Below the pieces are notes generated by a model. It was not told where the DNA came from. It saw nothing but the letters and a program-made list of their open reading frames with translations, and ran no database searches. From NCBI GenBank assembly GCA_036006525.1, contig DASYPP010000047.1:8077-72076 (forward strand): 64,000 nucleotides of DNA, in the 5' to 3' direction. Positions 13,294 to 57,368 of this stretch are shown here, piece after piece. The stretch is from Gemmatimonadales bacterium (GTDB lineage: Bacteria > Gemmatimonadota > Gemmatimonadetes > Gemmatimonadales > GWC2-71-9). The translations under genes and the position numbers were made by a program. Within the stretch, counting starts at the first letter, position 1, and each line of letters opens with the position of its first letter.

Positions 13294-13325
13294 GGGAATG
13301 GGGGAATGAGGGATTGGGGGAACAC
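13294..13325. repeat. Octamer tandem GGGAATGG x4 (G-quadruplex motif)
   Basis: GGGAATGG GGGAATGA GGGATTGG GGGAACAC. Confidence 0.75.
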
Positions 13326-14120
13326 CATTACCTTCCCTGCGTGCCAGCCCCCCTGACCTGCCCAGTCTGCGGCGCCGAGAGCGCCGGCGGCAACTTCTGT
13401 CCCGGGTGCGGAAGCCCGCTCGCCCAGCGGACCTGCACCGCCTGCAGCGCGGCGTTATCCCCCGGCGCGCGGTTCTGCCACCGCTGCGGTCACCCGGCCG
13501 CCGGCGTCATTCGCCGCCAGGCCGAGCGGCGGGCCTGGGCGGTGGCCGGCAGCCTGGCGACCATCCTGATCCTGGTCATCGTCTGGTTCATGGTCCGCGG
13601 AGCCAAACCCGCCGCCGCGCCCGACATGGCCAACGTCGGCTCGGCCAGCGGCGCCCTGGGAACCGGCCAGGCGCCCGACATCAGCAGCATGACTCCCGAA
13701 GAACGCTTCACCCGGCTCTTCGAGCGGGTCACCCGGGCCGCTGAGGGCGGGGATTCCGCCCAGGTCTCCGCCTTTGTGCCGATGGCGCTGGGTGCTTACA
13801 GCCAGTTGCCCGCGATCAACAATGATGACCGCTTTCACGCCGCCATGCTCTACTTCATGATCGGTGAGTTCCCCGGCACCCTCGCCCTGGCCGACACCAT
13901 CCAGCAGAACATCCCGCGCCATCTCTTTGCTCCGGTTCTCCGGGGGACCGTCGCCGAGGCGCAAGGCGACAAGGCCGCCCTGGCCCGGAGCTACGCCGCC
14001 TTCCGGGCGAACTACGCGCTCGAGCAGCAGGCCGGACGCCAGGAGTACAGCGACCACCGGGAACTACTGGAACAATTCAAGCGCTCGGCGGACTCAGCCG
14101 CCCAACAGCGTGAGCAGTAA
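13314..14120 (+). CDS. Double zinc-ribbon membrane protein
   Basis: CPVCG..CPGCG..CTAC..CHRCG, then a TM helix (AWAVAGSLATILILVIVWFMV). The real start may be the GTG a few codons downstream. Confidence 0.6.
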   Translation: MGEHHYLPCVPAPLTCPVCGAESAGGNFCPGCGSPLAQRTCTACSAALSPGARFCHRCGHPAAGVIRRQAERRAWAVAGSLATILILVIVWFMVRGAKPAAAPDMANVGSASGALGTGQAPDISSMTPEERFTRLFERVTRAAEGGDSAQVSAFVPMALGAYSQLPAINNDDRFHAAMLYFMIGEFPGTLALADTIQQNIPRHLFAPVLRGTVAEAQGDKAALARSYAAFRANYALEQQAGRQEYSDHRELLEQFKRSADSAAQQREQ

Positions 14121-14199
14121 GAAGTGAGAAGTAAGAAGGAACCGACGGAATCTGAAATCAGGCTGTTGTCCTTCTCACTTCTTACTGCTTACCTCTTAC
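14110..14199. repeat. Oligomer-tandem palindrome (GTRAGMA heptamers)
   Basis: Left arm GTGAGCA GTAAGAA GTGAGAA GTAAGAA. Right arm TTCTCAC TTCTTAC TGCTTAC CTCTTAC. Confidence 0.85.
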
Positions 14200-14226
14200 G
14201 CAGGTGAAACCGATCCCAAGGCCAGA

Positions 14227-15072
14227 TTGATGTCTCAAGTCATTCGAGTCGCCCATAGTCCCGATTCCGACGACGCCTTCATGTTCTACGCGCTGGCGGA
14301 AGGAAAGATCGAAACCGGGAATCTCCAGTACGTCCACGAGCTCTCCGACATCGAGAGCTTGAACCGGCGCGCCCTCACCGGCGACCTCGAGGTGACGGCG
14401 GTCTCGATCCACGCCTACGCCTACCTGCACCGCACCTACGCGCTGCTCAACAGCGGGTCCTCCATGGGCGATGGGTACGGGCCACGCCTGGTAGCGCCGG
14501 CGTCCCCGCCGGGTGATCCCCGCCAGGCCATCCGGGGCAAGCGCGTCGCGGTCCCCGGCCTGCTCACCACGGCGTACCTCGCGCTCAAGCTCTACCAGCC
14601 CGACTTCCAGGCGGTGGTGATCCCGTTCGACCAGATCGAGGACGCGGTGCGCCAGGGCAGAGCCGACGTGGGTCTCCTGATCCATGAAGGCCAGCTCACT
14701 TACGCCGATGACGGATTCCAGCTGTGGGAAGACCTGGGCGCCTGGTGGCTCCGCGAAACCGGGCTTCCGCTCCCCCTGGGCGGCAACGTGGTCCGGCGCG
14801 ATTTGGGCGAGGCCGTGATCCAGCAAGTCGCCCGGGACCTCAAGGCCAGCATCGTTTACGCGCTGGAGCACCGCCGGCCGGCCCTGGAACATGCCCGGCA
14901 GTTCAACCGGGGGATCGGGGACGAGCGGACCGACACCTTCGTCGCCATGTATGTGAACCAGTGGACGGTGGATTATGGCCCCCGGGGCCGCCAGGCCGTC
15001 CAGGCCCTTTTGGACCGGGCCTGGGACGCGGGACTGGTCCCTGAGCAGGTAACCGTGGACTTTATCGGATAG
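14227..15072 (+). CDS. MqnA/MqnD-family (futalosine-pathway menaquinone / periplasmic-binding fold) protein
   Basis: The N-terminal IRVAHSPDSDDAFMFYAL..GDLEVTAVS pattern resembles the VitK2_biosynth family. Confidence 0.65.
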   Translation: MMSQVIRVAHSPDSDDAFMFYALAEGKIETGNLQYVHELSDIESLNRRALTGDLEVTAVSIHAYAYLHRTYALLNSGSSMGDGYGPRLVAPASPPGDPRQAIRGKRVAVPGLLTTAYLALKLYQPDFQAVVIPFDQIEDAVRQGRADVGLLIHEGQLTYADDGFQLWEDLGAWWLRETGLPLPLGGNVVRRDLGEAVIQQVARDLKASIVYALEHRRPALEHARQFNRGIGDERTDTFVAMYVNQWTVDYGPRGRQAVQALLDRAWDAGLVPEQVTVDFIG

Positions 15073-15120
15073 GTGGGCTAGCTCATTGACGCATCGGAAG
15101 TTGGCCCGTACCTTCACGCT

Positions 15121-16182
15121 ATGACCGAAGACCAGCACACCTCCATCATGGTAGTAGACGATGATGAGCCGATCCGGACCGCCCTGAAGAAGTACCTCAC
15201 CCAGCAGGGGTTCGAGGTAAGCACGGCCGGAAGCGGGGACGAGGCCCTTAAGCTGCTCCAGAAGCAAAAGATCGCCTGCATCCTGCTGGACGTGAAAATG
15301 CCCGGCATCAGCGGTGTTGATCTGGTCCCCCGGATCATGGATATCGAGCCCAACGCGGCCGTCCTCATGCTGACCGGGGTCAACGATGCCACCAGCGCCG
15401 CGCTCTGTATGCAGCGGGGAGCAATGGACTACCTCACCAAGCCCATCGAACTCTCCGAGCTATCCCGGGCCATCAACAGCGCTCTCCGCAAGCGGGGCAC
15501 CCAGCTGGAACAACAGAACCTGAACCAGTGGCTCAAGGAAGAAGTCGCGGTCCGGAGCTCCGAGGTCCGTAACGAGCGCGCCAAGCTGGAGCGGCTCTCG
15601 GTTGCCACGCTGGAAACGCTGGTCAACGCGCTGGAGGCAAAGGATCCGTACCTCCGGGGTCACTCGGCGCGGGTGGCGGACCTCTCCGCCATGATCGCCG
15701 CCGAGATGAAGCTGTCGGACGAGGTCATCGAACAGGTGCGGATGGCGGGACGGCTGCACGATATCGGCAAGATCGGCATCCGGGAGGAAATCCTGAACAA
15801 GGAAGGACCGCTCACGGCCCAGGAGTATGAGCAGGTGAAGCAGCACGTCACGATCGGCTCGCAGATCCTGGCCCCGCTCGCCCACCTGCGCGATATCATC
15901 GGGTACGTGCGGAGCCATCATGAACGATGGGACGGGGAGGGCTACCCCGACAGCCTGAGCGGGGAAACGATTCCGCTGGGCGCGCGGGTGCTTTGCACTT
16001 CGGAGATTTACGACGCTCTCACTACGTCCCGGCCCTACCAGGAGAAGATGTCGCCCGACCTGGCGGTGCAGCGCATGCGGGACCTGGTGGGAAGCGTGCT
16101 GGATCCGGCAGTGCACCGGGCGTTGGAGGCGGTGGTCGGCCGGCGCCAGGCCCTGGTCTTCCTCGATGAATCCAAGGAGTGA
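15121..16182 (+). CDS. Response regulator with HD-GYP c-di-GMP phosphodiesterase domain
   Basis: Receiver domain (VVDDDEPIR..LLDVKMPGISG..KP), then HD (GRLHDIGKI) and HHERWDGEGYPD motifs. Confidence 0.85.
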   Translation: MTEDQHTSIMVVDDDEPIRTALKKYLTQQGFEVSTAGSGDEALKLLQKQKIACILLDVKMPGISGVDLVPRIMDIEPNAAVLMLTGVNDATSAALCMQRGAMDYLTKPIELSELSRAINSALRKRGTQLEQQNLNQWLKEEVAVRSSEVRNERAKLERLSVATLETLVNALEAKDPYLRGHSARVADLSAMIAAEMKLSDEVIEQVRMAGRLHDIGKIGIREEILNKEGPLTAQEYEQVKQHVTIGSQILAPLAHLRDIIGYVRSHHERWDGEGYPDSLSGETIPLGARVLCTSEIYDALTTSRPYQEKMSPDLAVQRMRDLVGSVLDPAVHRALEAVVGRRQALVFLDESKE

Positions 16183-16229
16183 CCCCCGGGAGTGGGGATT
16201 GCGACCCACCCCTCTGACAGGCGATGAAC

Positions 16230-16259
16230 GGCCGCCGGTTGGGCGGCTTCATTATTTTT
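16230..16259 (+). terminator. Hairpin plus T-rich tail between the HD-GYP gene and the REC gene
   Basis: GCCGCC-GGTTG-GGCGGC followed by TTCATTATTTTT. Confidence 0.4.
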
Positions 16260-16304
16260 CAACCTCATTGGGGACAGGCCCTTAGGCACCTCGGAAGGAT
16301 CGTC

Positions 16305-16676
16305 ATGGCTCAGGTGATTCTGGTCATAGAGGATGATCTGGATCAGCGGAGATTATTAGAGCGGATCCTGAGCAGCGCGGGTTACCGGGTGTTCTCCGCC
16401 CCGGATGGCCAGGCCGGCATCGATGCTGCCGCCGCGGTCCGCCCCGCACTCATCATTCTCGACGTGATGATGCCGCGGATGAATGGCTATCAGGCTTGCC
16501 GCGCACTGCGGCAGAACCTTGCAACCGCGGCGACTCCGATCCTCATGTTCACCCACAAGCAAGAACCGGCGGACCAGTTCTGGGCCAGTGAAGTGGGCGC
16601 CAGCGCTTTTCTCAACAAGCCGGTGGATGCGGCCGAACTGCTCGCCGTCGTGTCCAGCCTGGCCGGACCCGCGTGA
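16305..16676 (+). CDS. Stand-alone CheY-like receiver
   Basis: VILVIEDD..IILDVMMPRMNG..FTHK..NKP. ATG 16305 is preceded by GGAAGGA. Confidence 0.8.
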   Translation: MAQVILVIEDDLDQRRLLERILSSAGYRVFSAPDGQAGIDAAAAVRPALIILDVMMPRMNGYQACRALRQNLATAATPILMFTHKQEPADQFWASEVGASAFLNKPVDAAELLAVVSSLAGPA

Positions 16677-19600
16677 GTTTCCTCGACATCATCCTGATCG
16701 TGGCCGTCGGCCTCGCCGCCATCGGGCTGGTGGCGGTCCTGGTCTGGCTGGGCTATACCACTTACCTCACCCGGCTCGAGCACCGGCTGGCCGCGCGCAA
16801 GGGGATTTATCGCGACCTGGTCGCTGGACTCGCCACCCGGGACCGCGCACTACTGGAGCCGGTGCTGCACCAGGTGCGAACCGCGCGGGACTTCGACGCA
16901 TTGGAAGCGGTGCTCGAGGAACAGGCCCGCGGCTCGGTGGAACGCCCCGAATGGCTGCTCGATGCGTACGATCGGCTCGACCTGGTGCAGAAGTACATCA
17001 GCAAGCTCCGCGACGCGAAGCAATGGCGGGAGCGCGCCTTCGCCGCCGAGCTGCTGGGCCGGGTCGGGAACGCCAAGGCGGTTCCTGTGCTCCTCGAAAC
17101 CATCCAGGCGACCAAGGCTGAGGACGCCGACGTCCGAGAGATCGCCCTTCGCGCCCTGGCCCGTATCGCGGATCCCCGCGCGGTGGAGCCGCTTTCCGAG
17201 GCGTTGAAGCGGGCCGAAGTCTGGCTCGCGCCCCGCATCGCGGATATCCTGGCCCGCCACGGCGAGGCCGCGGTCGAGCCCATGATCGCGTTCCTCGAAG
17301 AGTCGTCCCAGCATCCGGCGCGAGCCTGGGCGGCGAACATCCTGGGCGAGGTTCGCGCCGCGCGGGCCTTCCCTGCCCTGGTCCGGGCCCTCGACGACCT
17401 GGATGACGAAGTCCGGGCCAAGGCCGCCGCCTCATTGGGAAAACTGGGCGACCGGCGCGCGGTGACCTACCTGCTGGACCACCTGCTGAGCGATCCCGCC
17501 CCGTTCGTCCGGGCCCGCATCGCCGGGGCGCTGGGCCAGTTCAACGAAGCCGAAGTCATCGACACCCTGGTGCGCGCCCTGGGTGATCCGGCATGGTGGG
17601 TCCGGATGCGCAGCGTCGAAGCGCTGGAGCAGATCGGCGCCGTGTCCGAGGGACCGCTCATGCTGGCCCTCGATGACACCGATCCCGAGATCCGGATCCG
17701 CGCGGCGGTGGCGCTGGAGCGGCTCGGCATTCCCAATCGGATCATCAGCCAGATCGAAGCGGGCACCGCCTCGAACGAGGCGATCGAAACGCTCACCAAG
17801 TTCGGTCTCGCCGGCGCCCGGGAGCTCCTGGCCGAGCAACTGCAGCATCGCTCTTCCAATGTCCGCGAAGCCGTGGTCAACGCCATCCTCCAGGCCGGCC
17901 GCCGCGACCTCGCCCTCGAGTTGATCCATACCGCGCTCACCGACCCGGAACCCGAGCTCCGCGCGCTTGCCTTTGACGCGCTCCGCAACCTGGGCATCCG
18001 CGACGCCGTCCCCTCCGCGCTCGATGGCCTGGGTGACACCGACCAGCACGTCCGGACCTCGGCCATGAAACTGGTGGGTGAACTGGGCGAGGCCGAAGTC
18101 GCCAACATGATCCGGCCCCGCTCGGCCGATCCGGAACCGATGGTACGGGCGGCAGCCGCCCGCGCGCTGGGCCAGATCCAGTCCAAGGAAGTGCAGCCCG
18201 AGCTGGCCCGCCTGCTCAAGGACCCGGTATCCGAGGTCCGGGCTGCCGCCGCCGATGGAGTCGGTGACGGCGGTGGCAACTGGGCCGTTCCAGATTTGTT
18301 GAAGCTGTTGGGCGACACGGATTCCCAGGTACGAGTAAGCGCGGCACGAGCGATGGGCCGGGTGGGAACCCCGGCGATCCTTCCCGCGCTGGTCCGGTCG
18401 TTTCAGACCGGGTCTCCCGAGTTGCGCCTGGTCATCGCCGATTCGGTGGCCCAGCTGGACCCGGAAGCGCTCCCCGGCCTGCTCGACATCCTGATGGAAT
18501 TCGGCGACCCCGAGTCGCGCATCGCGGCGGTCGGCATTCTCGGCCGGACCAAGTCGCCCCGGTCGGTCGAATTGCTGGAGGTGGTCTGGCGCGACCCGGA
18601 TCCCCGGGTGCGCGCGCTGGTACTCGAGGCGCTCACCGCCTCGGGCGATACCCGGGCCGCCCGGCTCATGGTCGAGGGCCTCGGCGATCCCGACGAATCG
18701 GTGCGGGGTCGGGCGATCGAAGGGCTCGCCCGGTTCGGCCACAAGGAGCCTGCGATTCTCGAGCTGCTCAAACACGATCCCTCGGCCGCGGTGCGCGAGC
18801 GGGCGACGATTGCCACCGGCCTGCTTCGGCTGGAAGGCGGGGAAGAGACGCTGCTGGAGGTCTGTCACTCCGACCAGCCCCTCAACGTGCGGGCGGCGGC
18901 GGCGCTCGGCATCGGCGCCTATGATCACGAGAGCATCGTTGCCCAGGTGCTCCAGATGGTGGACGAGGAGCCGGTGCGGGAATACCTGCGGGACCGGCTG
19001 CAGCATGATCCGGGATATCGCCAGATCCGGCAGCGGCTCAAGGAATCCCAGCAGGTCGAGCTGCGCGCGCTGGGCAGTCTCAACCGGGAGCAGATGGAGG
19101 CCTCCCTCGTGGAAGGCATGCGCGCGGTGCTGGATCCGCGGGAACGGGTCCGCCTGGTGTCGGCGATCCATGCTTTCCAGGGCGAGCGCAGCCGGCGGGC
19201 CCTGATGTACGCCGTGCGGAGCGACCCGAGCCCGGAGGTCCGCTCGGCCGCGCTCGCCGCGGTGGCCGGATTGCTGGACCCCGATGAACTGTCGCTTGCG
19301 GCGCGCCGGGCGGTCACCGATCCCCACGCCGCGGTGCGCCGGGTCGCGGTCACCCTGTTCGCCCGGATGACGCCGGAGCAGGCGATGCCGATGCTGATTC
19401 GCATGCTCCGCACCGAGGATGAGGACCCCGTGGTGCTCCAGGCCGCGGCCCGGCACGCTGAAGCGGCTTTCAATGTCTTCGTGGACCAGACGCTGGGCCA
19501 TGGCGCCGGCAAGGAAGGGGTCGTGATCGCGCGGGTGGCTCGCTACATCTACCATCCCGATCTGGCCCGGCTGCTGGAAACTCTGGCCAAGAGTCCGGCG

Positions 19601-20155
19601 CCGGACGTGCGGCGGGAACTGGCGTTGGTGTGGCGGGACCGTCCCGAGCTGATCGCCGAGCCGGTGCTCGCCGGATTGAGCCTGGACCCCGACGCCACGG
19701 TCCGGCTGGCGTCGGCGCAGGCGTGGGCCGCCGCCAAGCGGTTTGACCGGCTGGCCGGGTTTTTCCAGGATCCCGAGCCGGAGATCCGCCGCCGGGCCGC
19801 GCTCGAGCTTCGCGCTTCCCCCGACGGTCCCGATCCAGCGCCGCTGCAGAACGATCCCGATGAGCGGGTGCGCGCCGCGGCATGGCTGGCCGAGCTGGTG
19901 CGGGGCCGCCGAACGGCGCCCCCGTCCGACGTGGGCCGGGAAACCGCGATCGCCACGCTGCGCGAGATCACCACCCCGGAGGACCTGCAGGCGACCGTGC
20001 GCACCAACCCGGACGCGGGGCAACGGCTCACCGCCGCCATCGCCCTCGCCGTACTGGGTGATCCACTGGCCCAGGAAATCGCCCGGACCGATCCGGTGGC
20101 CCAGGTGCGCGATGAAACCTCCCGGGCGCTGGAGCAGATCGGGGCGATGGTATGA
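16673..20155 (+). CDS. Membrane-anchored HEAT (PBS-lyase type) repeat protein, 1160 aa
   Basis: N-terminal TM helix IILIVAVGLAAIGLVAVLVWLGY. At least 20 repeats of D-x-x-VR-x-x-A-x-x-AL-G (for example DPEIRIRAAVALERLG, DSQVRVSAARAMGRVG). The start GTG overlaps the upstream stop. Confidence 0.85.
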   Translation: MSFLDIILIVAVGLAAIGLVAVLVWLGYTTYLTRLEHRLAARKGIYRDLVAGLATRDRALLEPVLHQVRTARDFDALEAVLEEQARGSVERPEWLLDAYDRLDLVQKYISKLRDAKQWRERAFAAELLGRVGNAKAVPVLLETIQATKAEDADVREIALRALARIADPRAVEPLSEALKRAEVWLAPRIADILARHGEAAVEPMIAFLEESSQHPARAWAANILGEVRAARAFPALVRALDDLDDEVRAKAAASLGKLGDRRAVTYLLDHLLSDPAPFVRARIAGALGQFNEAEVIDTLVRALGDPAWWVRMRSVEALEQIGAVSEGPLMLALDDTDPEIRIRAAVALERLGIPNRIISQIEAGTASNEAIETLTKFGLAGARELLAEQLQHRSSNVREAVVNAILQAGRRDLALELIHTALTDPEPELRALAFDALRNLGIRDAVPSALDGLGDTDQHVRTSAMKLVGELGEAEVANMIRPRSADPEPMVRAAAARALGQIQSKEVQPELARLLKDPVSEVRAAAADGVGDGGGNWAVPDLLKLLGDTDSQVRVSAARAMGRVGTPAILPALVRSFQTGSPELRLVIADSVAQLDPEALPGLLDILMEFGDPESRIAAVGILGRTKSPRSVELLEVVWRDPDPRVRALVLEALTASGDTRAARLMVEGLGDPDESVRGRAIEGLARFGHKEPAILELLKHDPSAAVRERATIATGLLRLEGGEETLLEVCHSDQPLNVRAAAALGIGAYDHESIVAQVLQMVDEEPVREYLRDRLQHDPGYRQIRQRLKESQQVELRALGSLNREQMEASLVEGMRAVLDPRERVRLVSAIHAFQGERSRRALMYAVRSDPSPEVRSAALAAVAGLLDPDELSLAARRAVTDPHAAVRRVAVTLFARMTPEQAMPMLIRMLRTEDEDPVVLQAAARHAEAAFNVFVDQTLGHGAGKEGVVIARVARYIYHPDLARLLETLAKSPAPDVRRELALVWRDRPELIAEPVLAGLSLDPDATVRLASAQAWAAAKRFDRLAGFFQDPEPEIRRRAALELRASPDGPDPAPLQNDPDERVRAAAWLAELVRGRRTAPPSDVGRETAIATLREITTPEDLQATVRTNPDAGQRLTAAIALAVLGDPLAQEIARTDPVAQVRDETSRALEQIGAMV

Positions 20156-21756
20156 CCCCGCGGGAAACGCTGGCCCTGGTGCTGGGGCTTGTCGGTCTCG
20201 TGCTGCAGCCCCTGTTCCTGCTGTACTTCCTGATGTACAACACCTACACAATCGCCCTCATCCTGCTGTCGGCTCGCCAGGTCCGCCGCCGGGTGGCCGG
20301 GCACTTCATCGAAGACCTGGACCTGATCGACGCCCACGACTCGACCAAGCCGATCACCATGGTGGTGCCGGCGTACAATGAAGAAGTCACCATTGTCGAT
20401 TCGATCACCAACCTGCTGCACGTGGACTACCCGCGCTTCGAAGTGGTCGTGGTGAACGACGGGTCGCAGGACCGGACCCTCGAGGTACTGAAGCAGGCCT
20501 TCCGGCTCCGGCGCACCGACCTTGCCTACCGTGACGCCATCGGCACCGCGCGGGTCCGTGCGACCTTCGAGGCGACGATCCCGCTCCCCAGGCATGTCAC
20601 CAAGCTGGTGGTCATCGACAAGGAGAATGCCGGCAAGGCGGACGCGCTGAACGCGGGCATCAACGCCTCTACCGCGCCCTACTTCGTGTCGCTCGACGCC
20701 GACTCGATCCTGGACCAGCGGGCCCTGAAGGAGCTGATGCGGGTGATCCAGGAGGACCCCCGGGTGGTCGCCGTGGGCGGCCAGGTCGCCATCGCGAACG
20801 GCTGCGCCATCCGGAACGGCCGGGTGGTGAGCGTGGGACTGCCCAGCAACCCGCTGGCCCGCTTCCAGATGGTGGAGTATCTCCGGTCCTTCACCACCGG
20901 CCGCACCGGGCTCGACAAGCTGGACGCGATCCTGATTCTCTCCGGTGTCTTTGCGGTGTTCGAAAAAGAAACCGTGATCCGGGCGGGCGGCTACCTCACC
21001 CCCTTCGTCACCCATCGTATCGTGGAGGAGTACATCGGTTCCCGCGCGGCTACCGTGTGCGAGGACATGGAGATCATCGTCCGGCTGCACCGGTTCGTGC
21101 GCGACAAGATGAAGGACAAGCGCATCGCCTTCCTGCCCCACCCGGTGGCCTGGACCGAGGTCCCCGAGCGGCTCGATTCCCTGCGCAAACAGCGGGGCCG
21201 CTGGTATCGCGGCCTCCGGGAGTCGCTGCTCTATCATCGGGACATGCTGTTCCGGAAGAAGTACGGCCGGATCGGCTGGTTTGCGCTGCCCTCGTTCTGG
21301 CTCTTCGAATACTGGGGACCGGTGATCGAGATCGGCGGCTACCTCTTCGTGACGCTCTTCCTCATCATGGAGTACCTGCTGGGGATGAACTTCCTGAACG
21401 AGGCCTATGCCGTCGCGTTCTTCCTCGCTTCACTGGGATACGGGATCCTGGTGAACCTCTTCGCGGTGCTGGTGGGCGCCTGGCGCTTCCGGTTCGGGCT
21501 GGCCGACCGGCTGCAGCGCGGCCTGCTGCCCTTCAGCCGCAAACGCGACGTGCTCATCCTCCTGGTCTACTCGGTACTGGAGACGCTGCCGTTCAGCTAT
21601 CGCCATATCACGCTCTACTGGCGGATGCGGGGATTGTGGGACGCCTGGCGGGGCAAGAAGACCTGGGAAAAATTTGCCCGGGTCGGCTTCCGGACCGAGC
21701 AGAGTTCCGCGACCGTGACGCCCCCGGTAGCGCAGCCGGGAGCCGCGCATGGCTGA
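20152..21756 (+). CDS. Processive family-2 glycosyltransferase (PgaC/IcaA/NodC-like synthase)
   Basis: VVPAYNEE, VVNDGSQD, DADSILD and QRGRWYRG (Q-x-x-RW) motifs, with N- and C-terminal TM helices. ATGA overlap with the HEAT gene. Confidence 0.85.
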   Translation: MTPRETLALVLGLVGLVLQPLFLLYFLMYNTYTIALILLSARQVRRRVAGHFIEDLDLIDAHDSTKPITMVVPAYNEEVTIVDSITNLLHVDYPRFEVVVVNDGSQDRTLEVLKQAFRLRRTDLAYRDAIGTARVRATFEATIPLPRHVTKLVVIDKENAGKADALNAGINASTAPYFVSLDADSILDQRALKELMRVIQEDPRVVAVGGQVAIANGCAIRNGRVVSVGLPSNPLARFQMVEYLRSFTTGRTGLDKLDAILILSGVFAVFEKETVIRAGGYLTPFVTHRIVEEYIGSRAATVCEDMEIIVRLHRFVRDKMKDKRIAFLPHPVAWTEVPERLDSLRKQRGRWYRGLRESLLYHRDMLFRKKYGRIGWFALPSFWLFEYWGPVIEIGGYLFVTLFLIMEYLLGMNFLNEAYAVAFFLASLGYGILVNLFAVLVGAWRFRFGLADRLQRGLLPFSRKRDVLILLVYSVLETLPFSYRHITLYWRMRGLWDAWRGKKTWEKFARVGFRTEQSSATVTPPVAQPGAAHG

Positions 21757-22795
21757 GCCCAGCGAACTCCGCGTCCTGATCGTGGACGACGACCCGGCGA
21801 TGGCGGCGCTGGCCCGGCAACTGATCAAGGGCCACGGCTATCCGGATCCCCGGGTGGTGACCTCGGGCAGCGAACTGCTGGCCAGCACCGAGCCGGCCGA
21901 CATCATCCTGCTCGATCACCAGCTGCCCGATGGAACCGGGCTGGAGCTGCTGGCCGCCCTCAAGGGCCGGGCCGGCCATCCGTCCGTCATTCTCATCACC
22001 GGGAACGGAGACGAGACCCTGGCAGCCTCCGCCTTGCGGCTGGGCGCCGAGGACTACCTGGTCAAGGATGGCTCGCTGCCCAAGCTGCTGCCTCAGGTGA
22101 TCGAGCGGGTGCGCCGGACCCGGGCGCTCCGGAGCACGCTGGTCGCCGCCGAAGCGGATCTGGTCCGGGCCGAACGGCTCGCGGCGATCGGCCAGCTGAT
22201 GGTGACGCTGCATCACGAGATCAACAACCCGCTCATGTCGGCCACGGCGGAGCTGGAACTGCTCCTGGCCAAGACCACCGGAGTCGATCACGCCGCGCTG
22301 GAGAACATCCGGAATTCGCTGGGACGGATCCGGGATGTCCTCAAGAAGGTGGGAGACCTGAGCGACTCGCGGACCACCAACTACCTCAAGGACATCGGCA
22401 TGCTGGACCTGGCGGCCGGGCAGCCGGCGTCAGCGGTGAAGCGGGGCGATGCGGTGCTCTGGGTGCACGATGAGAGCGTGGCCCGGGTGAGCGCGCTGTT
22501 GTTGCGCCATGCCGGATTCACTGCGCGCCGGGCCGGTGGCATCGAGGAGATGGTTCGGGAATCGGGGCAGCTCGGCGTCATGCTGCTGCTGATCGCCCAG
22601 CCCGTGGGAGCCGGCGCAAGGCCGATGGGAGGCTTCCGGCCGGAGAAGGATCGATTCTATACCCTGGTCGCGCTGGCGGAGGGCGATGGAGAGCCGGAGC
22701 GTAAGGCTGGGGCCGACGCCGTTATCCACCTGCCATTCGATCCGGGATCGTTCACCGAGGAGGTCTTGCGGGCGCTGGAGAAGTCGGCCGGCTGA
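21749..22795 (+). CDS. Receiver / HisKA-like / pseudo-receiver protein lacking an ATPase domain
   Basis: Canonical REC (VLIVDDD..ILLDHQLPDGTG..ITGN..VKD). H-box LHHEINNPL. C-terminal REC-like fold with Asp and Lys positions substituted. No N/G1/G2 boxes. Confidence 0.75.
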   Translation: MAEPSELRVLIVDDDPAMAALARQLIKGHGYPDPRVVTSGSELLASTEPADIILLDHQLPDGTGLELLAALKGRAGHPSVILITGNGDETLAASALRLGAEDYLVKDGSLPKLLPQVIERVRRTRALRSTLVAAEADLVRAERLAAIGQLMVTLHHEINNPLMSATAELELLLAKTTGVDHAALENIRNSLGRIRDVLKKVGDLSDSRTTNYLKDIGMLDLAAGQPASAVKRGDAVLWVHDESVARVSALLLRHAGFTARRAGGIEEMVRESGQLGVMLLLIAQPVGAGARPMGGFRPEKDRFYTLVALAEGDGEPERKAGADAVIHLPFDPGSFTEEVLRALEKSAG

Positions 22796-22808
22796 TACAC
22801 GGTTGATG

Positions 22809-22973
22809 CTAGAACCCACCGACCAGGAGTCGCCAGAAGAGGAAGGCCCCGATCGCAAAGCCCACCAGGAACGGCCCCGCCGTTGTGACGAAGCGATTCC
22901 CGCTCTCATCCGACCGGGTTACTACGCCGGTGAGCGTGTCATGATCGACCCGGAGGTCATGCACCAGGTACAC
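22809..22973 (-). CDS. Small tail-anchored membrane protein (tentative)
   Basis: High-GC3 stretch from GTG 22973. C-terminal TM helix PFLVGFAIGAFLFWRLLVGGF. Upstream codons of ORF 22809..23054 have low GC3. Confidence 0.3.
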   Translation of the reverse strand: MYLVHDLRVDHDTLTGVVTRSDESGNRFVTTAGPFLVGFAIGAFLFWRLLVGGF

Positions 22974-23172
22974 AGTCCTGGGACCAAATCTGAAATTCGA
23001 AAGACTCAGGGGGCGGCCGGCTGGGGTCAATCGGCCGGCGCATCCAGCCCGCACCGGCGGAAGACCCGGCGAGAAGAGACGCCATCAGCAAATGTGAAAT
23101 GGGTCGCATCCCGTCTCCGTGTTGAGGACACCGGAAGCTGAAGCCGCCGCGTGGCGCGGGTGTGACCTGCGG

Positions 23173-24666
23173 TCAGGGACCTGGGAGGAAGTTTTCCCGG
23201 CTGCTGATTTCCATCTCCTCCCGCGTCGCCAGCCGCGGCAGGGTGGGATCGCTTTCCCGGGCAGGCGAATAGACCGGCAGGGTGTCCGGTGGCAGCAGGT
23301 GGCGGATCGAATTGGCATAGTACTCAAGCAGCGGGCGCTGCCGGGGCAGCAGGACCAGGGTCTCGCCCTGTGCGACCACCAGCCGCCGCATACTGAACAT
23401 CCGCCAGGCCCGGTCCCACACTTCCTGAACGGGCAGCTCGCTTCGCACCACCTTGGCATTGAGCTCGCCCAGGTGGTCTCGCAGGTCGTCCATCCGCTCC
23501 AGCAGGCGGGAACGGGACACCGCGCTGCCACCGAAGGAGAGCAGCGCGGCCGCGGCGAGCGGAACCGGGGTCACCGGGACGACCGCGCCGATCCGCTCCA
23601 TCGCCAGGTCCGCCAGCTGCTGCACCCGCGAGAGCCGCTGGTATTTCTCCAGTGAGAGGACGTCGTCCGGTTGGGTCTTGAGCCAGGCCCGGACCGAAAT
23701 CGGCGTGCCGAAGTTCACCGCCGCCCGGCCGTAGCGCTGGAGCCGGCCCGAGAACAGGCGCAGCGTATTCCAGAACAGGTAGCTGACCACGCCGCCCAGC
23801 TGCCGGATCTTCGGCTCCGGCCGCCCGCCGACGATCCGCTCCCGGATCAGCGAACGATCTTCCAGCACCCGGTCGTAGTTGATGCCAACCGGCACCAGCC
23901 AGATATCCCGGTCAAACCCCGGTTCTCCCAGTGTCCGCACCATGTAATCGATGAGACCCAGCTTGGCCGGCCGGAGAGCGCCATCGCGGCTGAGGCCTCC
24001 CTCGGGGAAGATTCCCTGGGTGATTCCGTTGCGGGTGATGAGCTGGATGTAGCGTTCCAGCACCGCGTGATAGAGCGGCTCCCGGTAACGCCGCCGGATG
24101 AAGTAGCTGCCGAAGCTCTTGAAGACGTACTCCAGCGGCCAGGTCCGGGCCCATTCGCCCACGGCGTAGCTGATGCTCACCACCCGGGCCAGCACGTAGG
24201 CGACCACCACGTAGTCCGCGTTGCTGCGGTGGTTCATCACGTAGAGGACGACGTCGTTCCGGGGAATCGCGTCGAGCGCGGGCCGGTCCTGGTATTCGAT
24301 CGAGGCCTTGTAGAGCAGGTTCAGCAGCAGGCGGGAGAGATTGTAGCCCAGCTTGTAGTAGGAGAGAACATTGAAGAACGGGACGATCTCGTCGATGTAC
24401 TCTTCGACCTTCCCGAGAACCTTGTCCTGCGCCATCCCGTGCGCCACGCCGTGCGCCGCCGCGGCCTCGAGCACCACCGGGTCCCGCATCAATTCCGCCT
24501 TCACCACCTTCCGATCCACCAGCTTGTAGCGTTCGAGCCGGGCCCGGAAGCGGAGCACTTCGCGACGGGCGCTCTGGCGCAGCCATTGTCTGCCGAGCAG
24601 CACACCAGGCACGAGGAGGGCTGTTACACCAATCGAATAGAGAGCCCAGGAAGGCAGATCAGACAA
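23173..24666 (-). CDS. PlsB-like glycerol-3-phosphate / lysophospholipid acyltransferase
   Basis: HX4D motif (NHRSNAD) and FPEGGLSRDG motif. Confidence 0.75.
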   Translation of the reverse strand: MSDLPSWALYSIGVTALLVPGVLLGRQWLRQSARREVLRFRARLERYKLVDRKVVKAELMRDPVVLEAAAAHGVAHGMAQDKVLGKVEEYIDEIVPFFNVLSYYKLGYNLSRLLLNLLYKASIEYQDRPALDAIPRNDVVLYVMNHRSNADYVVVAYVLARVVSISYAVGEWARTWPLEYVFKSFGSYFIRRRYREPLYHAVLERYIQLITRNGITQGIFPEGGLSRDGALRPAKLGLIDYMVRTLGEPGFDRDIWLVPVGINYDRVLEDRSLIRERIVGGRPEPKIRQLGGVVSYLFWNTLRLFSGRLQRYGRAAVNFGTPISVRAWLKTQPDDVLSLEKYQRLSRVQQLADLAMERIGAVVPVTPVPLAAAALLSFGGSAVSRSRLLERMDDLRDHLGELNAKVVRSELPVQEVWDRAWRMFSMRRLVVAQGETLVLLPRQRPLLEYYANSIRHLLPPDTLPVYSPARESDPTLPRLATREEMEISSRENFLPGP

Positions 24667-24727
24667 TGGGTGGCTCGTGTGGCTCGGAGAGCGTGCAGCG
24701 GCCTTGACGGTGCCAGGCTGCTTCGAT

Positions 24728-24813
24728 GCGCATCAACGCAAAGGCGCCAAGACGCGAAGAAAGACAATCATCCTGTTTTTGCTTTGCGCCTCCGCGTCTT
24801 CGCGTTGATGCGG
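24728..24813. repeat. Oligomer-tandem palindrome (AAGGCGCC / CTTTGCGC units)
   Basis: GCGCATCAACGCAAAGGCGCCAAGACGCGAAGAAAG ... GCTTTGCGCCTCCGCGTCTTCGCGTTGATGCGG. Confidence 0.7.
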
Positions 24814-24853
24814 TTAGAAGCGCGATACCATGACGCGAGCCGACACACTCCAA

Positions 24854-25903
24854 TCACCCCTGGCTGGCCACCTGCCCCGGGATCGATTCTCTCTTGGCCT
24901 GCTGGAACGCCATTCCCTTGAGCCGCGCGATCCGCTGGTTCATTGGCGGGTGAGAGGCAAGGAAGTCCGCCAGCTTTCCTTCCTTGTTGTTGAGGGCCCG
25001 GGCCGAGGGGTCCACGATGCAGAGGTGAGCGGCGCCCTGGGTGATGGACTTGGTGGGTTCCTTCGCGGCCTCCAGCTTTTCCAGCGCGGTGGCCAGCGCC
25101 TGCGGGTTCCGGGTGAATTGCGCCGAAGAGGCGTCGGCCAGGTATTCTCGCTTGCGGCTCACGGCCATCGCCAGGATCCGGGAGATGATCGGTGCCAGGA
25201 TCAGGGTAATGACCCACAGCACCAGGATGAGAATCGCGAGCTGGTTGCCCCCGCCCTTCTTGCTGCCGCCACCGCGGCCGCCGCCGCTCGCGAGGGCGCG
25301 GCCTCCGCCCCGGCCCAGCATCCGGCCCATGCCGTCCGACATCAGCGCGATCGCGCCGACCATGGCGGCGAGCAGGGTCATCAGCCGCACGTCGAGGTTG
25401 CTGATATGCGCCATCTCGTGCGCGATCACCGCCTGGAGCTCATCCCGGTTGAGCGTGGTGAGCAGCCCCTCGGTGACCGCGATGTTGGCGTGCTGCTGGT
25501 CGAGCCCGGTGGCAAAGGCATTGGGATCGGAATCCGGAACCACCCAGATCCTGGGGCGCGGCAACCCGGAGGCGATGGCCATCTCTTCGACCACGTTGAC
25601 CAGCTGCTTCTGCTCCGGCGTGGCCGGCTCGATGATCTCCCAGGCCCCGGCGGCCCACAATACCCGGGCCGGACCCTTCTTGAAGGAGTACCAGCAGATG
25701 CCCAGTCCCACGGCCGTCAGGATCAGGCCGATGATGGGAATGGTATGATGGTAGGACTGGGCCGGCGCATCCCGGGTCAGCAGATAAAAGCCCAGGTCGC
25801 CGCCGAAGCCGACCCAGGCAAAGAAGAGGATGAAACCAAAGACCAGCCAGCGGGTGCGCTTGCGGTTGGCGTCTTGTTGTGCGAAGAGATTGGGGGCAGT
25901 CAT
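24854..25903 (-). CDS. M48-family (HtpX-like) zinc metalloprotease
   Basis: HEXXH (AHEMAHI), 4 TM helices, and partnership with LemA. Start taken at ATG 25903 (MTAPNLF..). Confidence 0.8.
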   Translation of the reverse strand: MTAPNLFAQQDANRKRTRWLVFGFILFFAWVGFGGDLGFYLLTRDAPAQSYHHTIPIIGLILTAVGLGICWYSFKKGPARVLWAAGAWEIIEPATPEQKQLVNVVEEMAIASGLPRPRIWVVPDSDPNAFATGLDQQHANIAVTEGLLTTLNRDELQAVIAHEMAHISNLDVRLMTLLAAMVGAIALMSDGMGRMLGRGGGRALASGGGRGGGSKKGGGNQLAILILVLWVITLILAPIISRILAMAVSRKREYLADASSAQFTRNPQALATALEKLEAAKEPTKSITQGAAHLCIVDPSARALNNKEGKLADFLASHPPMNQRIARLKGMAFQQAKRESIPGQVASQG

Positions 25904-25907
25904 AGAT

Positions 25908-26000
25908 GTGAGCAGTGAGCGGTAAGCAGTAAGCAGGACAGGCATCGACCATCCGGATCGTGAAACCGGTCCCGCTTACTTCTTACTGCTTACTGCTTAC
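25908..26000. repeat. Oligomer-tandem palindrome (GTRAGCR heptamers)
   Basis: Left arm GTGAGCA GTGAGCG GTAAGCA GTAAGCA. Right arm CGCTTAC TTCTTAC TGCTTAC TGCTTAC. Confidence 0.85.
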
Positions 26001-26005
26001 ACGGT

Positions 26006-26563
26006 TTACATAGCCAGATCGACTTTGGGCACCGCGCGCTCCGCGGCATCCTCGATCTCCCAGAGTTCCGCGGGCACCGCCTTGGCCATGCCGGCTACCA
26101 TGCTGGCCGGGAACTGCATCTGCCTGGTGTTGTACTGGGTCGCCGTATCGTTATACATCTGGCGCGCAAAACCGATCTTGTTCTCGGTGCTGGTCAGCTC
26201 TTCCTGCAGCTGGGCGACGTTGCCGGTCGCCTTGAGGTCGGGGTACGCCTCGGTCAGCGCGAACAGCCGTCCCAGAGCCTGGGTCAGCTCACCCTCCGCC
26301 TTGGCGGTCTGGCCCACGCCGGTGGCGTTGACCGCCTTGTTGCGGGCCGTGATCACCGCCTCCAGCGTGCTCTTCTCGAAATTCATCGCGCCCTTGACGG
26401 TGTTGACCAGGTTCGGAATCAGGTCGTGCCGGCGCTTGAGCTGGACATCGATCTGTTTCCAGGCGTTGGCCACCTGGTTCTTGAGCGCGATGAGCGCGTT
26501 GTAGGTGACCACGAACCACAGGGCGATGGCCACCAGGACGGCGATGACGATGTAGGGACCCAT
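26006..26563 (-). CDS. LemA family protein
   Basis: N-terminal TM helix plus a NALIALKNQVANAWKQIDVQLKRRHDLIPNLV pattern. Confidence 0.85.
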   Translation of the reverse strand: MGPYIVIAVLVAIALWFVVTYNALIALKNQVANAWKQIDVQLKRRHDLIPNLVNTVKGAMNFEKSTLEAVITARNKAVNATGVGQTAKAEGELTQALGRLFALTEAYPDLKATGNVAQLQEELTSTENKIGFARQMYNDTATQYNTRQMQFPASMVAGMAKAVPAELWEIEDAAERAVPKVDLAM

Positions 26564-26574
26564 GCGAGCCTCGT

Positions 26575-27231
26575 TCAGGGAGTGGAATCGGCGTTGTCCG
26601 GTATGAGGCTGTGCAGGGCCCCCCGGAATGCCGCGAGTAAGGTCGCCTCATCCGGGGGATGGCGGAAGAGGGGATGGCGCTCGTCGATCAGGACCTCGAT
26701 GCCGGGCCCCAGGGTTACCCGGCGGCAGGCGGTGACCCGGGCCTCGCTGGCGTCCTCGGCGTGGGCCCAGTCCTGGATGACCCGGCCCACCTTGCCCCGG
26801 GGCGCGCCGCTCTGAACCAGCGTAATCCGGGAAGGTCCCGGCAGGTTGGGGCCCAGGGCGGAAGCCACCCGGCGTTCCAGCACGTCCCCCGCCTGGTCGC
26901 CCAGGTCGCGGGTGATGGCGCCGAGGGTAGCGCCTTCCATCTGGCGCTGCTTGATCGCGAGGACCTGGAGCAGGTGGCGATAGGAATAGATCGCCGCGGT
27001 CCCGCGCCCTTCCGGCGGGCTGACCAGCCCCTGGGCGACATAGAACCGGATGGTGCGTTCACTGGGGCGGGCACGGGCGGAGACGTTGAGCGGAAAGACG
27101 CCGGAAGCTTCGAGGATGGCGCCGGCCAGCGCAGACAGGTCCCGAAGGCTCCAGGGCGCCAGGGCGCGATACTCCCGGAGCACTCGCAGCGGATCGGCCC
27201 CGGTGGTCCCGGGAAGCCGCGGCGCAGTCAT
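26575..27231 (-). CDS. MerR-like HTH protein
   Basis: TIRFYVAQGLVSPPEGRGTAAIYSYRHLLQVLAIKQRQMEG resembles the MerR wing-HTH. Confidence 0.5.
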   Translation of the reverse strand: MTAPRLPGTTGADPLRVLREYRALAPWSLRDLSALAGAILEASGVFPLNVSARARPSERTIRFYVAQGLVSPPEGRGTAAIYSYRHLLQVLAIKQRQMEGATLGAITRDLGDQAGDVLERRVASALGPNLPGPSRITLVQSGAPRGKVGRVIQDWAHAEDASEARVTACRRVTLGPGIEVLIDERHPLFRHPPDEATLLAAFRGALHSLIPDNADSTP

Positions 27232-40602: not shown

Positions 40603-41700
40603 TCAGATTTCATACCGAATGAACAGCGAAGCTCCCCAGCCGGTGATATTGTGGTTCGAGCCATCGGTAAACTCGTACTTCCCGAAGTCGAACCGGGCCG
40701 CCGGGGAGATGGTGATCTTCTCGCCCATCGGAATCTGGAGGGCTGCCCCACCGCCGAACAGGCTGCCACTGCCCTGGTCCGGTGACCAGAACCGGGCTTC
40801 GAGTAGCGGCTCCAGCCGCATGTTCCGACCCATGGGCCAGGATCCGCTGGCACCCAGCGAGAAGATGTTTTCCTGGTTGGTCGACCCGGCTCCCCCGGCC
40901 TTCTGGCGGTAGAAGTCCCAGGCATACCCGGTCAGGGTGCCGTTCCCGGCCAGGAAGGACAGGGACAACTCCCCGATGTAGCGATTGCCGGGCTGGTAGG
41001 TCCCATTGCCCCCGCCCGACAAATTGGCGAAGTCGTCGTTGCCGAAGGTGCTGAACGTGAACCCGGCCGCCAGCCTGGATGTGCCGAGGGTGCGGTCAGC
41101 CGCCACCTTGATACGGCCTTCGGTTCCCGGAGAGTACGTGAGGTTGTCGTCGGTGAACGGGGTGTACTCTCCGCTCATACGAAGACTTCCCGCCAGGCCC
41201 AGGTTCCAGGACCCGGCCGTCGTGGCAACCGCCAGTCCGCCGGTGACGGAGAGTCCGGTGCGATAGGAATTCACCGGGAAGGACAGAAAGTTGGCGGCGG
41301 CAACGCCGAGGACACCGGACTCCGCGGTCGTCTGCTTCTTGCCGGTCGGCAGATTCACCATCACCGTGGCGACCAGTGCGTCGCGCCCGAACACGTACGA
41401 CCCGCGGACCTGGGTATCGGTCAGACCCGATACCGTGGTGGCCGCACCGCTCACTTCGCTCCGGGTCGAGGCGAAGTAGGTGCCGACATCCACCGACAGC
41501 CGCTCATTTACCGGCATGACCAGCGCGATCGGAAACGCGAATTGCCGGGTGTTGGGACCGGCGTCCACCGAGTAACCTCGGGCCGAAATGCCGGTGATAA
41601 AGGAGGTCGAGGTCACCAGCTGATCGTCCTGCGCCTGGGCGCCGCGCGCAGCTGCCAGCGCGACCACGAGAGCCAGGGCGGCTCGAGTCGAAGTTCTCAT
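40603..41700 (-). CDS. Outer-membrane beta-barrel protein (uncharacterised)
   Basis: Signal peptide ALALVVALAAARGAQAQ and alternating-hydrophobic strands throughout. ATGA overlap with the upstream lipoprotein gene. Confidence 0.6.
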   Translation of the reverse strand: MRTSTRAALALVVALAAARGAQAQDDQLVTSTSFITGISARGYSVDAGPNTRQFAFPIALVMPVNERLSVDVGTYFASTRSEVSGAATTVSGLTDTQVRGSYVFGRDALVATVMVNLPTGKKQTTAESGVLGVAAANFLSFPVNSYRTGLSVTGGLAVATTAGSWNLGLAGSLRMSGEYTPFTDDNLTYSPGTEGRIKVAADRTLGTSRLAAGFTFSTFGNDDFANLSGGGNGTYQPGNRYIGELSLSFLAGNGTLTGYAWDFYRQKAGGAGSTNQENIFSLGASGSWPMGRNMRLEPLLEARFWSPDQGSGSLFGGGAALQIPMGEKITISPAARFDFGKYEFTDGSNHNITGWGASLFIRYEI

Positions 41701-43046: not shown

Positions 43047-43155
43047 AGGGTCCTGGAACGAGAAAGGAGGTCCCGGCAATGTACCGGCCGCTCCCCGGCT
43101 CGGCAACCAGCCGGACTAAGGGGATAGGAGCTTGAGGGTTACTGCAATTTGGAGG

Positions 43156-57254: not shown

Positions 57255-57368
57255 GCGGTCGGGGCGGACGAGACGGTCAGGGCGGACAACAAAGGCTGGC
57301 ATTCAAAGTGGATGTCAGCCTTTTTCTTGACCGCCTCGACCGCCTTTGACCGTCTTGTCCGCCTCGAC
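57254..57368. repeat. Oligomer-tandem palindrome (GGTCRGGGCGGAC units)
   Basis: Left arm GGCGGTCGGGGCGGACGAGACGGTCAGGGCGGACAAC. The right arm GACCGCCTCGACCGCCTTTGACCGTCTTGTCCGCCTCGAC lies inside the 3' end of the HEAT gene. Confidence 0.75.

Follow-up and report, generated by a model that had tools for sequence, protein, structure and literature searches.

We analyzed a five-gene locus in a 64,000-nucleotide stretch of DNA from a soil Gemmatimonadales bacterium (GenBank assembly GCA_036006525.1, contig DASYPP010000047.1, positions 8,077 to 72,076; the whole stretch is called the window hereafter, and all positions are given in its numbering). The genes, all on the forward strand between 15121 and 22795, encode a response regulator that joins a receiver (REC) domain to an HD-GYP domain, a stand-alone receiver, a large HEAT-repeat protein with a transmembrane (TM) helix, a family 2 glycosyltransferase (GT2), and a protein that combines REC and HisKA domains (Table 1). 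A first-pass annotation of the same DNA had described this arrangement and the chaining of the last four genes, and both are borne out by the sequence: the receiver stop and HEAT start share GTGA at 16673-16676, the HEAT stop and GT2 start share ATGA at 20152-20155, and the GT2 and REC-HisKA genes share the 8 nucleotides ATGGCTGA at 21749-21756. The start/stop overlaps are identical in a relative that is 81% identical (L001; L numbers are our handles for the loci compared), and codon-position GC content agrees with coding on the forward strand, with values at third codon positions of 0.84-0.90 in four genes and, for the receiver, 0.73 over the long version of its open reading frame (ORF). That longer ORF (16224-16676) was considered and dismissed because the ribosome-binding site, the lengths of homologues, and the presence of a hairpin inside the extension all favor a start at 16305, where the ATG is preceded by GGAAGGA 5-11 nucleotides upstream and from which the gene matches homologues called at 123 residues.

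Table 1. Features of the HEAT-GT2 locus, in window coordinates
Feature	Position	Strand	Evidence
REC-HD-GYP response regulator, 353 aa, putative cyclic di-GMP phosphodiesterase	15121..16182	+	Response_reg 2e-29, HD_5 4e-38
Terminator-like hairpin and T-run	16230..16257	+	Consensus scan; gap between HD-GYP and REC genes
Stand-alone receiver, 123 aa	16305..16676	+	Response_reg 8e-26
HEAT protein, N-terminal module: TM helix and ~340 aa of HEAT repeats	16673..17782	+	Homologous to widespread 350-400 aa TM-HEAT partners
HEAT protein, C-terminal extension: ~790 aa of 1160 aa	17783..20155	+	HEAT_2; colinear with giant HEAT proteins L084 and L008
Membrane-embedded processive GT2 synthase (by predicted fold), 534 aa	20152..21756	+	Pfam GT2 families, invariant motifs, AlphaFold2 fold
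REC-HisKA-pseudoreceiver protein, 348 aa, no ATPase domain	21749..22795	+	Response_reg and HisKA; hhalign

The glycosyltransferase matches the Pfam families Glycos_transf_2, Glyco_tranf_2_3, Glyco_trans_2_3, and Chitin_synth_2, and the hallmarks of processive synthesis that had been read from its sequence are invariant in an alignment of the window protein with 25 relatives of 34-74% identity: D182 and D184 of the DxD motif, E304 and D305 of the ED motif, and Q347-R348-x-R350-W351 of the QRxRW motif. Hydrophobic segments lie at residues 9-39 and 388-450. An AlphaFold2 (AF2) model of the protein (predicted local distance difference test score, pLDDT, 88.8; predicted template modeling score, pTM, 0.89) was searched with Foldseek, and the top 30 matches were hyaluronan synthases (HAS), BcsA, chitin synthases, and CesA, the best PDB matches (E 7e-16 to 1e-10) being Chlorella virus HAS, Xenopus HAS1, BcsA, fungal and oomycete chitin synthases, and plant CesA. 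Judged by its modeled fold, the GT2 is thus a membrane-embedded processive synthase with a predicted translocation channel. The enzyme also stands apart from the characterized families, as its scores against NCBIfam fall far below the cut-offs for PgaC_IcaA (TIGR03937; 126.1 bits, cut-off 422.3), for CelA, that is BcsA (TIGR03030; 40.9 bits, cut-off 699.1), and for NodC (38 bits, cut-off 550). It is 26% identical to Escherichia coli PgaC over 323 residues, and PDB sequence searches with the single GT2 and with a family profile found no close relative of solved structure.

Upstream of the synthase, the 1160-residue HEAT protein matches HEAT_2 at 6.5e-108 across 11 stretches (Pfam) and has a single strong N-terminal hydrophobic helix (residues 6-24) followed by basic residues, which places the solenoid in the cytoplasm, as the first-pass annotation had also proposed. 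Its residues ~8-367 align colinearly (phmmer) with much shorter proteins that accompany related synthases in other phyla. These partners typically have one N-terminal TM helix and ~330 residues of HEAT_2 repeats (median length 367 residues), and a hidden Markov model (HMM) of this TM-HEAT family scores 385 bits (E 1e-116) against the whole window protein, a figure inflated by the repeats. A PDB sequence search with the HEAT protein returned designed alphaRep proteins and phycobilin lyases only. Elsewhere in the window, a second HEAT_2 protein of 501 residues (57315-58820, reverse strand; HEAT_2 3.8e-20, TM-HEAT HMM 57 bits) has no adjoining GT2 gene.

The pairing of the two proteins is conserved far beyond this lineage. 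An exhaustive HMMER search with the GT2 gave 948 representatives of clusters at 50% identity (E < 1e-30), and screening a single genome for each species yielded 80 GT2 loci from many phyla, in which ORFs were called and clustered and family HMMs built; loci with enough flanking sequence were counted as informative (75 for the HEAT-GT2 pairing, 62 for the receiver). A TM-HEAT family protein accompanied the GT2 in 72 of the 75 loci, usually encoded directly upstream or fused to it, and in two of the 72 the HEAT gene lay ~1.6 kb from the GT2 gene on the same strand. More than 10 phyla are represented, including Gemmatimonadota, Myxococcota, Bacillota, Actinomycetota, Bacteroidota, Acidobacteriota, Pseudomonadota, Nitrospirota, Verrucomicrobiota, and Fibrobacterota, and culturable carriers include Bacillus-group bacteria, Paenibacillus, Flavobacterium, and Stutzerimonas. 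Moreover, about 50 of the best 150 GT2 representatives are single TM-HEAT::GT2 polypeptides of ~950 residues, from Bacillota and named glycosyltransferase or HEAT repeat protein in their sources, whose N-terminal 300 residues are colinear with the TM-HEAT HMM and whose C-terminal half is the GT2. One such fusion was modeled with AF2 (pLDDT 88.8 and pTM 0.86 over 953 residues). In its sequence two hydrophobic TM helices separate the HEAT part from the GT domain, so that both would face the same side of the membrane. Together, the fusions and the near-universal adjacency are strong sequence evidence that HEAT protein and GT2 act as one unit. In one Gemmatimonadales metagenome-assembled genome (L065:4481-9558), the HEAT and GT2 genes are split into several overlapping ORFs, which is probably an assembly or frameshift artifact rather than real decay.

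The third recurrent component is a receiver. In 30 of the 62 informative loci the TM-HEAT gene is immediately preceded by a REC gene, often with a 4-nucleotide overlap, and a further 17 have a REC gene no more than 6 kb away on the same strand. The window locus has the same composition, namely an N-terminal TM helix and HEAT repeats encoded upstream of the GT2 and a receiver directly upstream of the HEAT gene; the TM-HEAT/GT2/REC module so defined is a family delineated in the present analysis and not a published one. Pfam supports the signaling domains assigned earlier by eye (REC with HD-GYP, stand-alone REC, and REC with HisKA), and the acidic pocket, Asp, Thr, and Lys residues of a receiver are readable in all three Response_reg proteins of the locus. 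Among the neighbors of related GT2 loci, hybrid histidine kinases recur.

In the window, the last gene adds a further signaling protein. Its product matches Response_reg (2e-22) and HisKA (1.4e-6), and no HATPase_c domain was found in it at E values up to 1 or in the 120 homologues listed, in keeping with its first description as a kinase-less REC-HisKA protein. That description was incomplete, since residues ~237-346 align to the REC profile (hhalign probability 96.4%, E 1e-9) and form a C-terminal domain of REC fold in which neither the acceptor Asp nor the Lys is retained, i.e., a pseudoreceiver. Residues D13/14, D56, T84, K106, and the H-box H156 are invariant across 118 aligned sequences. 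The homologues listed are ~314-362 residues long, and those named all come from Gemmatimonadota; the reading of the gene as a truncated kinase or pseudogene was dismissed because family length is constant and the catalytic residues are invariant. As the protein has no ATPase domain, the primary kinase would be encoded elsewhere, and the REC-DHp-pseudoreceiver arrangement (DHp, dimerization and histidine phosphotransfer domain) suggests a module for phosphotransfer or dephosphorylation that relies on such a kinase.

With a probability of about 60%, we interpret the locus as an uncharacterized and widely distributed synthase-dependent polysaccharide system, in which the synthase is controlled through its HEAT co-subunit by a phosphorelay, possibly together with cyclic di-GMP (c-di-GMP). 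Its core would be a two-protein inner-membrane synthase made of the processive GT2 and the single-pass TM-HEAT protein. The GT2 would polymerize a sugar nucleotide and pass the chain through the channel formed by its own TM helices, while the HEAT solenoid would sit on the cytoplasmic face of the enzyme as a co-subunit, with a function like that of PgaD, BcsE/F, or the alpha-solenoid activators of chitin and cellulose synthases in eukaryotes. A dedicated receiver, encoded on the same mRNA just before the HEAT protein, would in its phosphorylated form switch polymerization by the HEAT/GT2 pair on or off. The Gemmatimonadales subtype would differ in the size of its HEAT partner (1160 residues) and in the flow of phosphoryl groups through the REC-HisKA-pseudoreceiver protein, and the neighboring REC-HD-GYP enzyme would couple the system to c-di-GMP turnover, with HD-GYP or GGDEF proteins feeding the same decision. 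We infer the HEAT-GT2 contact, control by the phosphorylated receiver, the role of c-di-GMP, and export of the polymer; the product is probably a secreted or envelope beta-linked glycan, perhaps a hexose or N-acetylhexosamine chain. A stronger version, which we put forward tentatively and at less than even odds, holds that the HEAT solenoid is an obligate GT2 co-subunit and the docking site for a dedicated, phosphorylated single-domain response regulator in more than 10 phyla, that two-component phosphorylation, either in place of c-di-GMP or together with it, switches synthesis post-translationally, and that the giant HEAT protein adds a scaffold for further partners.

Several observations weigh against this interpretation. 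First, no known c-di-GMP-binding domain (PilZ, GIL, MshEN, or I-site) was found in the locus with Pfam, neither PilZ nor GIL in any of the five proteins. Second, 15 of the 62 informative loci have no receiver, and relative L005 also goes without the stand-alone receiver, its HD-GYP gene being followed directly by the giant HEAT gene (L005:3-4262); hence the receiver is a frequent rather than an obligatory partner. Third, HMMs built from related loci detected no porin, hydrolase, deacetylase, or modifying enzyme in the 64-kb window, which leaves export of the polymer from this diderm without an explanation. Fourth, the GT2 gene was found in none of the RNA runs searched, so that the case for co-transcription is made by the gene overlaps. 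As to novelty, neither NCBIfam, PDB sequences, nor the open-access literature searched yielded a description of a bacterial polysaccharide synthase with a HEAT partner, and that open-access scope tempers the claim; a paper on the lipocone was considered as a possible description of the module and dismissed, as it mentions HEAT for beta-catenin only.

What the HEAT protein does for the enzyme is the point at which the best-surviving alternative enters, namely that the solenoid is mainly a scaffold that positions or clusters the synthase (at a pole, on the cytoskeleton, or with other synthases, as the ARM-repeat protein CSI1 does in linking plant CesA to microtubules) rather than a gate, the receiver steering localization. 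The length of the HEAT partner ranges from ~350 to ~1200 residues while the GT2 stays constant, and the HEAT part of the fusion family has few invariant residues (R117, E143, and L342 alone are near-invariant). The sequences also diverge faster, in that identity to L001, L004, and L005 is 50-58% for the HEAT protein and 75-81% for the GT2, the most conserved gene of the locus, with 68-75% for the HD-GYP protein, 52-55% for the REC-HisKA protein, and 53-63% for the receiver (to L001 and L004). Such features suit a scaffold, but the common short form, with ~330 cytoplasmic residues, leaves little room for long-range tethering, and the frequent fusion to the GT2 and the tight coupling to a receiver fit direct control of the enzyme equally well. 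Scaffolding and control do not exclude one another, and we consider it unlikely that scaffolding is the main role.

The size of the window HEAT protein has parallels among relatives. Over ~1000 residues it is colinear, at 29-30% identity, with the 1200-residue L084 protein and the 1124-residue protein of Labilithrix (L008), and on this sequence comparison the 1160-residue solenoid is a lineage-specific, orthologous expansion and not random repeat growth. Gene order in L084 is rearranged (TPR protein, GT2, HisKA+HATPase kinase, REC, giant HEAT) and still keeps the 4-nucleotide overlap from REC to HEAT. The GT2s paired with giant HEAT proteins have in common 16 extra residues, inserted in the GT domain between its GGY and ED motifs, which hints at co-evolution; an exception is a Fibrobacterota locus in which a long HEAT protein accompanies a GT2 that lacks the insertion. 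Separately, five Gemmatimonadota loci (L015, L022, L025, L040, and L016) hold the short-HEAT form at ~40% GT2 identity, together with REC-containing proteins, a 'U6' protein (see below), or a TPR-YaiO barrel, so Gemmatimonadota may hold two paralogous systems, one with giant and one with short HEAT proteins.

The part played by c-di-GMP is the second matter on which readings diverge. The first gene of the locus encodes a protein with an HD_5 match at 3.6e-38 over residues 166-331 and with the HDIGK and HHERWDGEGYP signatures readable in its translation, and by domain and signature residues it is a putative HD-GYP phosphodiesterase; against the NCBIfam model of the NosR-family response regulator c-di-GMP phosphodiesterase it scores 235 bits, under the cut-off of 400. 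The gene keeps its place in Gemmatimonadales relatives, at the 68-75% identity given above. Between it and the receiver gene lies a hairpin (GGCCGCC-GGTTG-GGCGGCT) followed by TCATTATTTT. Terminator-like sites in the region number 5 against 3.7 expected, which is not above chance, and the hairpin is suggestive by its intergenic position only; on that basis, the HD-GYP gene may be transcribed separately from the REC-HEAT-GT2 operon. In one Bacillota relative, a REC-GGDEF(-Hpt) gene (Pfam) stands directly upstream of the HEAT gene, and its sequence cluster comprises 9 loci from several phyla. The neighboring HD-GYP and GGDEF genes would be consistent with c-di-GMP control.

They would also suit a different arrangement, in which c-di-GMP is bound by a new receptor, either the TM-HEAT protein itself or the GT2 through its Arg/Trp-rich C-terminal tail. 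The system would then be gated by c-di-GMP like PgaCD or BcsA-PilZ, while the receivers would only tune local GGDEF or HD-GYP enzymes. The retention of the REC-HD-GYP gene beside the operon in the clade and the REC-GGDEF cluster speak for it, as does the general knowledge that all well-studied synthase-dependent systems use c-di-GMP. Yet none of the four receptor domains sought is present, many related loci have a single-domain receiver and no c-di-GMP enzyme, and the terminator-like site parts the HD-GYP gene from the operon. We regard a new receptor of this kind as rather improbable, and a phosphorelay acting through the HEAT co-subunit remains our preferred explanation, with c-di-GMP as a possible additional input.

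The accessory genes differ between the window and its relatives. The absence of accessory genes of known synthase systems, pointed out in the first-pass annotation, holds for the window, where HMMs from related loci (TPR-YaiO, sulfatase-like, U6, and others) found none encoded and only a weak TPR-only match at 41700-43115. The lack of a porin is limited to the cluster of this lineage, as diderm relatives have beside the GT2 gene, in 25 loci, one for a ~420-residue protein of TPR repeats and a YaiO-type beta-barrel (PF19413/TIGR04390), and six loci have nearby a sulfatase/LtaS/OpgB-like membrane enzyme of the sulfatase/alkaline-phosphatase family. Bacillota and some Gemmatimonadota encode next to the GT2 the protein we call 'U6', 700-1090 residues long, anchored at its N-terminus by a TM or signal segment and with a large region outside the cytoplasm, for which neither Pfam nor NCBIfam gave a match; like the GT2 and the TM-HEAT partner, it scored above the cut-off of no NCBIfam family. 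The 'U6' cluster consists of L007:9356-12589 and 16 other ORFs (e.g., in L010, L030, L018, L064, L015, and L022), has TIM-barrel glycosidase-like stretches, and may be a glycan-processing component of the system. The weak TPR match in the window belongs to a 469-residue protein (41697-43106, reverse strand) with N-terminal TPR repeats and a weak match (6e-7) to CsgG, the curli secretion lipoprotein; it could be an envelope or secretion component, with no evident operon link.

A product that stays in the periplasm or envelope, as a glycan or glycolipid rather than a secreted exopolysaccharide (EPS), would account for the missing porin. No porin, hydrolase, or modifying gene lies in the window, and the unusual conservation of the GT2 (75-94% identity across Gemmatimonadales) would fit a housekeeping role in the envelope. 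On the other side, the fold and motifs of the GT2 match channel-forming processive synthases, the TPR/beta-barrel gene of diderm relatives stands beside the GT2 gene, and a porin could be encoded elsewhere in the genome, so that we give a non-secreted product little credence, about as much as a new c-di-GMP receptor. That the five genes are functionally unrelated and adjacent by accident is effectively refuted by the start/stop overlaps, the pairing across more than 10 phyla, and the natural fusions.

Among the curated families, the window GT2 is nearest in sequence to the poly-beta-1,6-GlcNAc synthase PgaCD (E. coli pgaABCD) and staphylococcal IcaAD, in which the GT2 synthase (PgaC or IcaA) needs a small inner-membrane partner (PgaD or IcaD) and is controlled post-translationally, much as the window GT2 has a membrane partner; the TPR and beta-barrel export protein of diderm relatives is analogous to PgaA, although its barrel is of YaiO type and not PgaA type. 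Unlike in Pga, the partner in the window is a TM-anchored HEAT solenoid rather than the two-TM PgaD, there is no PgaB-type deacetylase, and a receiver and phosphorelay stand in place of demonstrated c-di-GMP binding; neither PgaD/IcaD, PgaB/IcaB, nor PgaA was found among the five genes or their neighbors. Bcs cellulose synthase has the same membrane-embedded processive fold. In that system, the single-pass membrane protein BcsF recruits the cytosolic regulator BcsE, which holds a degenerate receiver, and the sulfatase/alkaline-phosphatase-family enzyme of some relatives recalls the phosphoethanolamine transferase BcsG. The window locus differs from Bcs in having no PilZ domain, BcsB, BcsC, or BcsZ, and in a regulator made of a HEAT solenoid and canonical, apparently phosphorylatable receivers.

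The best structural match to the GT2 model is HAS (Chlorella virus HAS and Xenopus HAS1; E 7e-16, TM-score ~0.5-0.6), which is of similar size and similar N- and C-terminal TM arrangement and works without a periplasmic subunit; it is 13-17% identical in sequence, and unlike the window GT2 it acts alone, with no HEAT partner or phosphorelay. In eukaryotes, processive GT2 synthases can have partners built of alpha-helical repeats that attach on the cytosolic side and serve to activate or position the enzyme, as in yeast Chs3-Chs4/Skt5 and plant CesA-CSI1. These partners are Sel1/TPR-like or ARM proteins and, unlike the window HEAT protein, have no TM anchor or two-component link, and no sequence kinship is implied. 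The E. coli genes yaiO, yaiP, and yaiS encode a YaiO barrel of the same family as in diderm relatives next to a GT2 (YaiP) and a deacetylase. The cluster differs from the module in having no HEAT or REC gene, just as the window has no YaiO-type gene, and YaiP matches the window GT2 over the N-terminal 145 residues only. In E. coli K-12 (NC_000913, 380069-384616; L087), yaiO lies beside yaiX (an acyltransferase gene disrupted by IS2), yaiP, and yaiS, and looks like part of a cryptic synthase-type cluster. Taken by sequence, the window system works like the synthase-dependent EPS systems but falls outside Pga/Ica, Bcs, and NodC and is without their accessory proteins.

The surroundings of the operon are conserved as well. 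At window positions 13314-27231 the flanks are syntenic in relatives (zinc-ribbon, MqnD-like menaquinone gene, GPAT-like acyltransferase, M48 peptidase, LemA, MerR-like), which marks the operon as a vertically inherited chromosomal feature and not an island. Directly past the operon, the reverse strand has an 81-residue ORF (22809-23054) that ends in a hydrophobic C-terminus and matches nothing in Pfam, and whose status as a gene is doubtful.

The enzyme class at this locus is familiar, and it is the co-subunit and the regulatory wiring that are undescribed and phylogenetically widespread. The first-pass annotation was right that the architecture had no description that we could find, and went astray in treating it as peculiar to the locus, which instead belongs to a widespread family whose common form has a short HEAT partner of ~360 residues. 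Of the three outcomes that it named as grounds for refutation (a GT2 inside a characterized family, a HEAT-GT2 adjacency lost in relatives, and profile searches at odds with the HEAT or Q-x-x-RW assignments), none was observed. To our knowledge, c-di-GMP gates every well-studied synthase-dependent EPS system (cellulose, poly-N-acetylglucosamine, alginate, and Pel) by way of a known receptor domain. The module described here has no known domain of that kind; what it retains, in Gram-positive and Gram-negative phyla alike, is a HEAT co-subunit and a receiver. If our interpretation is true, it would represent a new type of accessory subunit for processive glycosyltransferases, a way for two-component phosphorylation to act directly on polymer synthesis, and an unknown matrix or envelope polymer in the abundant Gemmatimonadota of soils.

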